Below, one piece after another: positions 32,776 to 38,098 of a stretch of 64,000 bases of DNA; the stretch's first letter is position 1, and the number at the start of each line of letters is the position of its first letter. This DNA is from Terriglobia bacterium (GTDB lineage: Bacteria; Acidobacteriota; Terriglobia; JAJPHL01; JAPKYU01). The position numbers and the translations under genes were made by a program. The stretch is from positions 512,001-576,000 of the forward strand of contig CBDBKE010000003.1 in NCBI GenBank assembly GCA_965206645.1. The letters run 5' to 3'. Under the pieces are notes generated by a model, which did not search any database, had not been told where the DNA came from, and worked only from the letters and a program-made list of their open reading frames with translations.

Positions 32776-34479
<1,704 letters not shown>

Positions 34480-34610
34480 CCCTGTCCAGTCTGGCAGTCC
34501 CCTTCACCCGCTCCTGCTTGTGCCAGGCCCCCCCCGGGGCCATTGCGCGGCAGGGGCCGACTTCCTCATTGCAACTGTAAACCTTGGATAGGGCGTTCTC
34601 TGGGAGAGGA

Positions 34611-34678
34611 TGGATTGCGTCCAACGCGCGTCTTCACCTGTCAGCTGCCTGAGCCGTCCGCGCGTTGGACGCAATCCA
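34611..34678. repeat. Perfect 20-bp inverted repeat with a 28-nt loop
   Basis: TGGATTGCGTCCAACGCGCG (34611-34630) and CGCGCGTTGGACGCAATCCA (34659-34678). Confidence 0.95.
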
Positions 34679-34702
34679 AAGTCAGTACACACATTCCAGG
34701 CA

Positions 34703-34738
34703 AATTCAGTCCCCTCTTCTTCGGGGGCACTATTATAC
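34703..34738 (-). CRISPR. Solitary degenerate CRISPR-repeat-like unit (no array)
   Basis: Minus strand GTATAATAGTGCCCCCGAAGAAGAGGGGACTGAATT: 36 nt, GT start, CCCC/GGGG stem, 8-nt tail ACTGAATT resembling the ACTGAAAC handle; overlaps the cas6 stop codon. Confidence 0.55.
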
Positions 34739-35704
34739 CCTCAGCGCGGCCTTGCGTTGAGTTTCTGGCTGGGCTTCGCTCGAGAATTCTCTACCCTGTA
34801 TTTCGTACCAGCCGTTGCCCCACACCGCATGTTTGCCCACGTGGAGGTATTGGCCGATGTGGAGCAGAGGAAGGAATTCGGCAAGGGCGTCGGCGGTCGG
34901 GGTGCCGAAGAGGGATTCGCCGAGGAAGCCGCCGATTGAGTGGCGGCGGCCGGTGCGGGCCGAGCGGCGCTGGCGCTCTTCCCAGTGCAAGTCCCGGCGA
35001 AGGCAGCCCACAGCCCGAGCGCGCTCAGCCAGTCCCCGGAAGTCCAACTGTAACGGACCGCCGCAGTAAAACGTAGCCAGCGCGTTCAACCGATCCCGCA
35101 GGCGACGCACCAGGTGATGGAACTCGGGCTCACGCACCTGCTTGTCCTCGAAAACCAGATCGGTCGGGGTGAGGAACCTTACCAGGACTTGCGATTGCGG
35201 ATTCCGAATTTCGAATTGGCTAAGTGGAGCCAGCTGCTCGACGCGCTCCAGGCGACAGCGGGCGCGGTTGAGCCCAAGGCCGGCTTCGGCTAGCCGGTCG
35301 AAGCTGAGCAAGAAATGGGGCAAGAGTTCGGTGATGCGGCCCACCAGAATCAGACCAAATTCCAGAGTTTCTCCAGGCGCATATTGGGTTTTTTCGTCAA
35401 TCTCAATGACGCCATTCTGTTTCGTTACCGGCGGCCGAATGACAAAGGGGCGAGGAATGGCCTGGTAATTGGACAGGGCGGGGGAGCCGGGCGGTGGTGC
35501 TGGCTCAAACACCTGAGCGTAGGGGCAGGTGGCGCGCAAATCGCAGCTGAGCGCCCCGGGACATTGCGGGTGGCAGCACTGCGCGCGCAGCGTCGTGCCG
35601 AGCGCGCCGCGCAAGACGTTGCCCTTGTTGCGCGCCGGCATGAACAGCGTCTGCTCGGGCACCAAGCGCAGGCGAAACTGAGCGAATTGCAGCCGGGAAA
35701 ACAT
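34733..35704 (-). CDS. cas6: CRISPR pre-crRNA endoribonuclease Cas6 (RAMP), orphan
   Basis: GNVLRGALG, Cys cluster CC..C..C..CPY, PRPFV, FLTP, C-terminal glycine-rich loop GQYLHVGKHAVWGNG; start probably ATG 35704 (ORF open to 35764). Confidence 0.9.
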   Translation of the reverse strand: MFSRLQFAQFRLRLVPEQTLFMPARNKGNVLRGALGTTLRAQCCHPQCPGALSCDLRATCPYAQVFEPAPPPGSPALSNYQAIPRPFVIRPPVTKQNGVIEIDEKTQYAPGETLEFGLILVGRITELLPHFLLSFDRLAEAGLGLNRARCRLERVEQLAPLSQFEIRNPQSQVLVRFLTPTDLVFEDKQVREPEFHHLVRRLRDRLNALATFYCGGPLQLDFRGLAERARAVGCLRRDLHWEERQRRSARTGRRHSIGGFLGESLFGTPTADALAEFLPLLHIGQYLHVGKHAVWGNGWYEIQGREFSSEAQPETQRKAALRV

Positions 35705-35805
35705 AGGTCCGGGGAAGCCGGGCCGCATCCTACGCCGCCAGAGATGGGTTTGCAAGTTCGGCATGAGACCGGAGACTACAAACTGAAGACTGGAGACCCG
35801 TGAGT

Positions 35806-36328
35806 TTAGCGGCGGGGCAGCAAACGGGTGCGACCAGAGGCGTTCACGACGGTGATCCGGCGAAAGCCCTCCGCGTAGGTGGGCGGGCGCAGCTTGCGCA
35901 CCATGCGCAGCATGACCTCCCGCGGCACGCGGCGTCCCCGGCGGGCGTTGCGCTCCCGGCAGACCTCGAGCGGCACATCGAAGAAGACCGCGTCTACACG
36001 GCAGTCGAACAATGCGGCCAGGCGGAAATAGCCCCGGCGCTCCTGGCGGTTCAGGTTGGTGGCGTCCACATAATGAACGCGCCGCCCCAGTCCTAGGCGC
36101 AGCCGCAGCAGCCAGCGCAGTGCCGAGAAAATCGCGGTCTGCTGCGACTGGTCGGTAACGTCATCGAGCAGCAGCTGGCGCAGCAGGTCGCTGGAGAGCG
36201 GCTGAATGCGGCGTCGGGCGAACCAAGTGGACTTTCCTGAGCCGGGGAGGCCCACAGCCAGAACAATTGTAGATTCCGGATTGCGGGATGAGGATTTCGA
36301 CTTCGGGCTTTGGACCTTGGTCTTTGGA

Positions 36329-36336
<8 letters not shown>
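35806..36336 (-). CDS. AAA_33/polynucleotide-kinase-like P-loop kinase
   Basis: GLPGSGKSTW, SSDLLR, VDATN, lid ERNARR; TTG at 36336 overlaps the end of fadE. Confidence 0.85.

Positions 36337-38098
<1,762 letters not shown>

Follow-up and report, generated by a model that had tools for sequence, protein, structure and literature searches.

A conserved solitary CRISPR-repeat derivative beside cas6 in Terriglobia: a candidate fixed guide for an array-less type III complex

Introduction

What might a Cas6 protein do where a single repeat is the only substrate in sight? The question is raised by a stretch of 64,000 nucleotides (nt) from a Terriglobia bacterium (contig CBDBKE010000003.1 of assembly GCA_965206645.1), which we call the window; its genome is referred to as G000, where the window is C3:512001–576000, and positions given without a contig are those of the window. 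On the minus strand, the window carries a cas6 gene whose TAA stop codon (34733–34735) lies, as a sequence-only reading had noticed, inside a 36-nt unit (34738–34703, GTATAATAGTGCCCCCGAAGAAGAGGGGACTGAATT) that resembles a repeat of the CRISPR type (short palindromic repeats, clustered and regularly interspaced). That reading proposed a stand-alone Cas6 module cleaving its own mRNA 3' end or, more simply, the remnant of a deleted class 1 locus. Here we describe the unit as the head of a conserved element and set it beside a type III effector operon, devoid of an array, that is kept elsewhere in the same genome.

The solitary unit is derived from a CRISPR repeat

The unit is single-copy in G000 even when 9 mismatches in 36 positions are allowed, and its nature was therefore judged against repeats from outside the genome. 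Scanning metagenome contigs with alignment A1, which rests on ten Cas6 homologues, gave 599 pattern matches, of which 535 encoded relatives of the window Cas6, and the best 80 loci were retained. A blind k-mer periodicity scan flagged 17 of these 80. Four were dropped (L041 and L077, with only one or two k-mers; L074, with an unrelated repeat; and L051, a duplicate of L050), leaving 13 arrays, all on the cas6 strand and within 10 kb of Cas6 homologues. The 37-nt array repeats all terminate in CCCC-N8-GGGG-A[CT]TGA[AG]A[CG]. The repeat of L050/L051 (...TGCCCCGAAGAAGAGGGGACTGAAAC) has 25 consecutive bases in common with the unit, comprising the base before the stem, the entire stem and loop, which are identical to those of the window hairpin, and the first six bases of the 8-nt handle that follows it.

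The 16 array repeats that went into a covariance model, R1, all come from other records (13 from the metagenome arrays, three from genomes of relatives); the unit itself was left out. The model is partly circular, in that the repeats of the three relatives G008, G015 and G023 were located with a motif chosen after the unit had been seen; G015 gave no Cas6 match, the G023 array is distant from its cas6, and the register of all 16 repeats was fixed by a regular expression on stem and handle. In G008, a relative at the level of the order, 15 kb separate cas6 from an array of 14 repeats. Over the 4.41 Mb of G000, the top R1 match falls on the unit (34705–34726, minus strand; 25.1 bits, E = 0.0027 by a rough calibration), and the next match has E = 2.9. 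R1 likewise puts the orthologous site first in G003 and G004 (E = 0.0027 and 0.15, respectively), and the best unrelated matches in five relatives score at most 18.5 bits. In Rfam, the best match at the site is CRISPR-DR32, whose 19.6 bits lie far below the gathering score of 48. The CCCC/GGGG stem is invariant in 16 of 16 array repeats. Judged by these comparisons, the solitary site is a genuine CRISPR-repeat derivative, beyond chance. R1 aligns over model positions 14–35 only, and a full-length repeat including the 5' 13 nt was not found; by the same alignments, only the 3' 22–24 bases of the unit are repeat-derived and its 5' third is not repeat-like. The repeat architecture that the sequence-only reading ascribed to all 36 nt therefore holds for the 3' part, the top R1 match, and gives way over the 5' 12 bases, which hold a conserved TATAAT box.

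Single R1 matches also lie directly downstream of cas6 in the type I-B loci L045, L063/L071, L044, L109 and L103, ahead of cas8b-cas7b-cas5b-cas3b. Several of these I-B solo repeats end in ...AAAT; array repeats end in ...AAAC or ...AAAG, and the window element also ends in T. From its sequence, the window element may descend from an I-B CreR-like solo unit and not from an array. We also observed that in three I-B solos (L045:1472–1560, L063:1952–2040 and L044:2906–2975) the 5' part of the repeat is complementary to a stretch about 20 nt past the handle. This complementarity encloses a short spacer-like segment just before cas8b and is consistent with published CreR-like units.

The repeat heads a conserved element with a -10-like box

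The conserved element measures 110–140 nt and consists of a -10-like box, the CCCC-N8-GGGG hairpin, the handle, 24 unpaired bases and a 20-bp hairpin (Table 1). The box is kept as TATAAT, TACAAT or TATACT in five orthologues. Its conservation suggests that the element has its own promoter and is not merely the 3' untranslated region (UTR) of cas6. By analogy with other Cas6 enzymes, the predicted cut is expected between 34711 and 34710. Across the five copies, the hairpin loops are GAAGAAGA, TGTCAAGA or GATCCAGA, the handle reads AC[TC]GAA[TGC]T, 24–25 bases are unpaired and the long hairpin has 17–20 bp. Among the orthologues, the first 13 nt of the guide stretch are variable and the rest is nearly invariant.

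Folding of the G000 element RNA recovers the predicted structure, with z = -4.44 against shuffles. The long stem stays paired through changes on both sides: its pair 58/123 is mismatched (U-C) in G001 and, in the other four copies, G-C, U-G or U-A. R2, a model covering the element in full, also matches the plus strand over model positions 49–116, the long hairpin folding on both strands. This hairpin probably serves as a 3' end or terminator structure, in common with the convergent rpoD. A consensus terminator scan returned terminators only at background level.

Table 1. Positions of the element, of the genes around it and of the distant effector operon
Feature	Position	Strand	Remarks
TATAAT -10-like hexamer	34732–34737	(-)	5–7 nt upstream of hairpin; contains cas6 stop TAA
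Repeat-derived hairpin CCCC-GAAGAAGA-GGGG, presumed Cas6 binding site	34711–34726	(-)	R1 match; folds as predicted
8-nt handle ACTGAATT	34703–34710	(-)	array repeats carry ACTGAAAC or ACTGAAAG
24-nt unpaired spacer-like ('guide') stretch	34679–34702	(-)	continues into 5' arm of long hairpin
Long hairpin, 20-bp arms 34659–34678 and 34611–34630	34611–34678	(-)	loop varies in length and sequence
cas6	34733–35764	(-)	343-residue open reading frame counted from first ATG
rpoD-like sigma factor gene	32776–34479	(+)	convergent with element
AAA_33 P-loop kinase gene	35806–36396	(-)	84 bits; 42 nt upstream of cas6
cas10 - csm2 - csm3 - ankyrin/DUF2059 gene - csm4	G000:C3:154322–159651		outside the window; PADLOC and Pfam matches (RAMP, Cas10, Csm2, Csm4 profiles)

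The element is retained independently of the cas6 stop codon

Searched with three mismatches allowed, the 24-nt core of the element occurs once each in five related genomes among 61, namely G000, G001 and G003, which form one genus, and G004 and G006, which belong to two further genera. A sixth match (G021, three mismatches) was taken as chance. R2 returned the same five genomes among 11 of the order and no further orthologues. Identity to G000 outside the loop is 78/86 in G003, 69/86 in G004 and 69/86 in G006 (80–91%); within the loop it is 28/44, 10/30 and 5/30, and in the tail 2/11, 4/11 and 3/11, respectively. For cas6, the synonymous divergence (dS) between G000 and G003 is 0.68, and it exceeds 1 for G004 and G006, with synonymous sites near saturation. 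Since the element outside the loop is 80–91% identical while cas6 dS runs from 0.68 to above 1, the element is under selection of its own. In an alignment of the cas6-rpoD spacer, conservation is higher past the cas6 stop than in the cas6 C-terminus.

The element adjoins the rpoD 3' end in G000, G001, G003 and G006, and the hairpin begins 6–15 nt past the cas6 stop in the first three; the order rpoD - cas6 - AAA_33 kinase - acyl-CoA dehydrogenase is retained in two congeners. In G003, the cas6 stop has been moved upstream of the box by a 9-nt duplication. About 2.5 kb, with a 598-residue TPR gene, separate cas6 from the element downstream of it in G004, and in G006 the element stands between the rpoD 3' end and an unrelated gene, cas6 being on another contig. 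Because G004 and G006 keep the element away from the cas6 stop, the stop-codon overlap is incidental; in G000, the TAA is simply part of the TATAAT box. Retention of the solo repeat in relatives, a point raised by the sequence-only reading, is thus borne out in five genomes of three genera, but the link that it drew to the cas6 stop and the 3' end of the gene's own mRNA does not survive the comparison with G004 and G006. Cleavage of the cas6 mRNA tail is possible in this genus and is not the conserved feature. A recent remnant of a deleted class 1 locus is also at odds with the data, as close relatives share the arrangement and no array or full cas operon was found at this locus in the family genomes searched.

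cas6 encodes an intact protein under purifying selection

The cas6 product matches the PF10040 CRISPR_Cas6 profile at 54.1 bits (cut-off 25) and the PADLOC Cas6 model PDLC01477 at 247.4 bits over residues 24–323; searches of NCBIfam, and of the PDB by sequence alone, gave no match. The Cas6 fold is a double ferredoxin-like/RRM fold. An AlphaFold2 model of the window protein, built on the ten homologues of A1, has a mean predicted local distance difference test (pLDDT) score of 77.3, and its top Foldseek matches are the solved Cas6 structures 4ILL (E = 5.8e-12), 4C9D (E = 4.2e-11), 3ZFV and 6FJW, with template modelling scores of 0.5–0.66 on the target. The C-terminal glycine-rich loop reads HVGKHAVWGNGW, a motif that we take to define the Cas6 glycine-rich loop, and G310, W315, G316 and G318 are invariant in the 10 homologues. 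The earlier description of an intact Cas6 with a G-rich loop is upheld by these profile and fold matches. Alignments of homologues begin at about residue 21–24, and translation may in truth begin at the ATG at 35704. At the C-terminal end, some 17 residues form a low-confidence tail that runs into the -10-like box.

The ratio of non-synonymous to synonymous substitution rates (dN/dS) of cas6 is 0.12–0.30 over ten pairs. By this measure the gene is under purifying selection, and relaxed selection, which would have spoken against the sequence-only reading, is not seen. Searches with PF10040 and PF01881 found the window gene as the sole Cas6 of G000.

An array-less type III operon is conserved in the family

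Apart from cas6 itself, the Pfam models RAMPs, Cas1, DevR, Cas5d, Cas3_HD and Cas_Cas6_C, together with PF10040, matched nothing in the window, where an ORF-by-ORF (open reading frame) scan with a Cas library was not made. Two periodic-repeat scans detected no array in the window and none elsewhere in G000 except a three-repeat I-E-like array. Both results agree with the earlier statement on the 64 kb, in which neither a further cas gene nor an array had been seen. G000, G001 and G003 yielded no array of the Cas6-linked repeat family, and the unit is single-copy in each.

The notion of a stand-alone Cas6 module is contradicted by a cas10-csm2-csm3-csm4 operon, conserved in the family, that lies on the same contig 387 kb from cas6 (Table 1). 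The same four effector genes stand beside thiI in G001, G003 and G006 and are present in G005 too. They contain no stops and have dN/dS values of 0.10–0.30, by which the operon is intact and conserved under purifying selection. Of 41 genomes searched, 11 have a short Cas10 of this kind; leaving G000 aside, it is present in five of six members of the family and in four of four of the sister family. The G000 protein has 531 residues, models match it only from about position 198, and an overlapping upstream frame has no family match, so that an HD domain is lacking; the HD domain is absent from Cas10 in every member. A GGDD motif is present in Cas10 of G000, G001, G006 and the metagenome locus L070 and is replaced in G003 (GGSNA) and G005 (ENGSG), i.e. 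the cyclase motif is lost in two of five lineages. All members retain the Csm3 aspartate, which we take to be the catalytic residue.

The metagenome locus L070, a type III-A/D-like locus, offers what is presumably the complete form of the system. It unites cas6, cas10, csm2, csm3, csm4, a TM+CARF gene and an array of the same repeat family in one block. The G000 system resembles it in Cas6 (39% identity), in a short, HD-less Cas10, Csm2, Csm3 and Csm4 (36–54%) and in the repeat family, but differs in that cas6 and effectors are 387 kb apart, with neither a CARF homologue nor an array, a single fixed, guide-like RNA being what is left. In tblastn, the only CARF/SAVED search made, the L070 CARF protein found no homologue in G000.

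Several observations concern the surroundings of this operon. At the csm3-csm4 junction, G000 has a gene for a secreted-looking ankyrin/DUF2059 protein of 387 residues (L004:8317–9480 = G000:C3:155316–156479), G003 has a gene for an 832-residue Ser/Thr kinase with TPR repeats that is PADLOC PD-T4-6-like (L156:12147–14645), and the junction is empty in G001; this may be a site where the type III operon tends to acquire accessory genes. A conserved 135-nt stretch past csm4, suspected of encoding a crRNA-like RNA (crRNA, CRISPR RNA), turned out to be a tRNA gene with an integration scar in G001. By eye, this tRNA directly past csm4 (L004:7160–7323; L157 in G001) has the anticodon CGU (Thr). The tRNA gene of G001 has had its 3' half replaced, and a second, full copy is found 3.9 kb off, a pattern like that left when a mobile element integrates; in G000, an rve-type transposase gene adjoins the tRNA downstream of csm4.

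All other CRISPR material found in G000 is debris. A type I-E remnant (L006:9122–9975 = G000:C4:1993121–1993974) comprises the C-terminal 128 residues of Cas1e, an intact-looking Cas2e and the three-repeat array, whose 29-nt repeat is degenerate in its last copy and which is followed by a 'mad2'-like gene on the other strand. There is a second Cas1 fragment elsewhere, a truncated Cas3e consisting of the HD part only (356 residues, L164:8451–9521) and a Cas3 fragment. As for type I effectors, G000 gave no match to DevR-type Cas7 or Cas5d, no relatives of the L063 I-B proteins and no second Cas6. Arrays with a 108-nt period that the CRISPR-like scan flagged (G000:C3:292200–294700, C4:1154450–1155100, C4:1165200–1165900 and C4:445367–445800) were set aside as coding repeats of Sel1/TPR-type look. 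A Gabija pair (GajA 504 bits, GajB 295 bits; L164:13257–16761 = G000:C4:1085256–1088760) was seen a few kb from the truncated Cas3e.

A proposed fixed guide for the Csm complex

Cas6, one substrate for it and the Csm backbone are retained, and the searches brought up no further source of guides; read most simply, a Cas6-cut fixed guide would load the Csm complex. We regard it as evenly balanced whether Cas6 releases one fixed guide for the array-less type III (Csm) complex. The site would be the head of a small crRNA-like gene, drawn from the CRISPR repeat family processed by this Cas6 clade. The hairpin transcript would begin at the -10-like box, or would be the tail of the cas6 mRNA in this genus, and Cas6 would bind the CCCC-N8-GGGG hairpin and cleave at its 3' base. 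The RNA so released would consist of the handle ACUGAAUU, a fixed and unpaired 24-nt guide and the 20-bp hairpin closing the 3' end. As the only RNA in the genome bearing a repeat of this family, it would load the Cas10-Csm2-Csm3-Csm4 proteins encoded 387 kb away, and the loaded complex would be a fixed-guide particle that binds or cuts RNA, not a device of adaptive immunity. In this scheme we infer transcription of the element, the Cas6 cut, Csm loading of the RNA and a target.

Type III crRNAs need only the upstream repeat, their 3' ends being trimmed, and because of this trimming a single repeat suffices as a type III guide source. Mismatches next to the handle mainly affect Cas10 activation; the pattern of the guide, with 13 variable nt followed by a nearly fixed remainder, would fit this effect. 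HD and the CARF effector have been lost, as has GGDD in two lineages, and these losses suggest a complex retained for RNA binding or cutting by Csm3 and not for signalling. More tentatively, we propose that in this Terriglobia-like family a type III system has turned into a hard-wired ribonucleoprotein, of which Cas6, the Csm3 backbone and one vertically inherited, Cas6-processed guide with its own promoter are kept, and which has a fixed RNA target.

A number of observations weigh against a fixed Csm guide. No target was found: blastn-short of the intergenic region against G000 gave nothing usable, mismatch-tolerant scans of five guide segments in G000 stayed at the shuffled background, and exact matches of at least 9 nt in the effector and cas6 loci of G000, G001 and G003 were only 9–11 nt long and in non-orthologous places. 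Collections of phages and plasmids held no guide match, nor did two pattern scans of viral contigs; a Xanthomonas phage match (38 nt, 85%, E = 0.5) was taken as chance. A consensus sigma-70 scan gave no promoter at the element, where there is no recognisable -35. As to the RNA itself, the last two handle bases deviate from 16 of 16 array repeats (AC/AG to TT, GT or CT), handle position 7 is variable among the orthologues, the G001 guide has a 1-nt insertion, and the 20-bp hairpin occupies would-be guide positions 25–44. The operon was read without sight of a csm5, for which no Csm5 profile was used, and csm4 is followed by a tRNA gene. The Cas6 family is mostly I-B-linked, with I-B-like genes in 33 of the 80 metagenome loci versus a short Cas10 in two, in keeping with the possible descent of the solo repeat from an I-B CreR-like unit. 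In G001, a 2.7 kb insert (DDE transposase and TIM-barrel gene) splits cas6, the effector genes being intact, and the repeat hairpin lacks two bases, which leaves a 3-bp stem. This co-decay fits a coupling of Cas6 and hairpin, but it also shows that the system can be lost, and it is a single case. Finally, the genomes compared are metagenome-assembled and some are only 62–72% complete.

Contigs from RNA libraries give no usable expression evidence over the element. In library X18, a 151-nt contig covers 34665–34815 with no differences at a depth of 2.1, and RNA libraries can hold DNA. Short contigs in X18 and X19 cover parts of cas6; the contigs indicate neither ends nor strand. The source of a joint 34463>34612 in X19 (one contig, side 30) is probably a relative in which rpoD and the hairpin are less widely spaced.

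Alternative explanations

The element could be the business of Cas6 alone, in that binding or cutting of the hairpin sets the 3' end or stability of cas6 mRNA, or frees a small RNA that works independently of any effector, the type III operon being unrelated. With the hairpin 6–15 nt past the cas6 stop in G000, G001 and G003, cas6 mRNA probably carries it; the family is mainly I-B-linked and G000 has no type I effector left, so that cas6 retention could be effector-independent; and a stable 3' hairpin with a deviant handle suits a free small RNA as well as a crRNA. In G004 and G006, however, the element lies outside the cas6 3' UTR, and autoregulation through cas6 mRNA therefore cannot be the conserved function. 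An effector operon without an array is maintained by purifying selection with no other evident guide source, and 24 unpaired nt behind an 8-nt handle are the geometry of a crRNA. We consider an effector-independent role unlikely, though it is the foremost of the alternatives. A role of the opposite strand or of the DNA, as a 3' UTR element of rpoD or a protein binding site to which the ancestral repeat likeness is irrelevant, seems to us very unlikely. It would account for the position of the element next to the rpoD 3' end in four genomes, with the G006 rpoD stop about 5 nt from the hairpin, and for a long hairpin that folds on both strands, as the plus-strand R2 match indicates. Yet it is the cas6 strand on which repeat likeness, -10-like box and handle are all read, the element is missing from two rpoD paralogues of G000 that have the same proximal 3' UTR, and a separate G+C-rich hairpin lies nearer the rpoD stop in G000.

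Decay is the other possibility, the site being the last repeat of a lost array or of an I-B CreR-like unit and its conservation a by-product, e.g. of a terminator shared by rpoD and cas6. G000 is rich in CRISPR debris (the Cas1e fragment, Cas2e, the three-repeat I-E array, the Cas1 fragment and the truncated Cas3e), the G001 cas6 is split by a transposon with its hairpin shortened, and no target was found. A 2023 survey, in the parts accessible to us, describes type III mini-arrays without conserved positions, enriched Cas10 clades or targets and views them as probably degraded (10.1101/2023.03.03.530964), which supports decay and counts against a fixed Csm guide. Against decay, hairpin, handle and guide are 19/24 and 17–18/24 identical across genera although, counted from the rpoD side, they lie 30–100 nt past the long hairpin; the loop and tail between the constrained parts are at random level, and cas6 dS is above 1. 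The CCCC/GGGG stem is retained while its loop changes, and dN/dS is 0.1–0.3 for cas6 and the four effector genes. We hold a decaying relic to be distinctly unlikely.

Relation to known solitary-repeat RNAs

CreR, CreA and crlRNA are solitary-repeat regulators of type I-B, I-E, I-F and V-A systems (10.1101/2023.03.10.532045; PMC9458426; 10.1101/2023.03.03.530964; 10.1101/2024.12.27.630466). As far as the accessible parts of these papers describe them, the window element is like them in being a degenerate repeat outside an array, beside cas6 and followed by a short spacer-like stretch, in a position conserved among relatives; as with CreR, homologues of the window Cas6 have solo repeats between cas6 and cas8b in the five I-B settings listed above. 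In contrast to the systems so described, G000 has only a type III effector and none of type I, II or V, no partially matching target in a cas or toxin promoter was found for the element, and no array of its repeat family coexists with it. Racr are phage RNA anti-CRISPRs built of solitary repeats (PMC10651486). On the portion of that account open to us, the likeness lies in a solitary repeat mimic that a Cas6-type protein could bind; the window element differs in lying on the chromosome, in synteny with housekeeping genes, and in having been passed on vertically in three genera, without a phage or plasmid match.

Among type III systems, III-C, III-G, III-H and HRAMP/ARAMP are array-less or cyclase-dead and have been proposed to use, in trans, the crRNAs of other arrays (Makarova et al. 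2025, PMC12669027). Set beside them by what could be consulted of their description, the system studied here is similarly reductive, having lost the adaptation module, the cyclase residues in G003 and G005 and the array at its locus. It departs from these variants, as there described, in that no matching array was found in G000 from which to borrow; III-G and III-H keep the HD nuclease, which the G000 Cas10 lacks; and there is a conserved single crRNA-like gene instead.

Neighbouring genes

The AAA_33 gene keeps its place next to cas6 in G001, G003 and G004 and is absent beside the Cas6 homologues of the metagenome loci. A functional link between this kinase and Cas6, for example as an RNA 5'-OH kinase, would be pure speculation. 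A second degenerate repeat suspected near 34480–34530 (GGGGACTG, with two other matches in the genome) was rejected, as it is the shared 3' UTR of three rpoD paralogues. These three rpoD-like genes (window 34440–34530; G000:C4:1195850–1196000; G000:C1:363950–364070) have their 3' coding ends and about 50 nt of 3' UTR in common (31/33 and 25/25 positions identical).

Significance

It is known that type I, II and V effectors can be reprogrammed to regulatory ends by solitary-repeat RNAs, and type III cases were regarded as debris in one broad survey, to judge from its accessible text (10.1101/2023.03.03.530964). In the open-access literature, we found no conserved crRNA-like RNA tied to a type III effector. 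The case described here is a defined one, with one repeat-derived RNA in three genera, a single Cas6 and an array-less, minimal Csm operon that is losing its Cas10 outputs. If the proposed reading is true, a conserved crRNA-like gene would here be seen to serve a type III effector for the first time. Should Cas6 be the only partner of the RNA, the case would be a plain one of Cas6 functioning independently of an effector. If it guides the Csm complex, the system would be a natural minimal type III particle of four proteins and one short guide, which would be of practical interest, and it would show how, in this family, adaptive immunity can become a fixed RNA-guided regulator or innate sensor.

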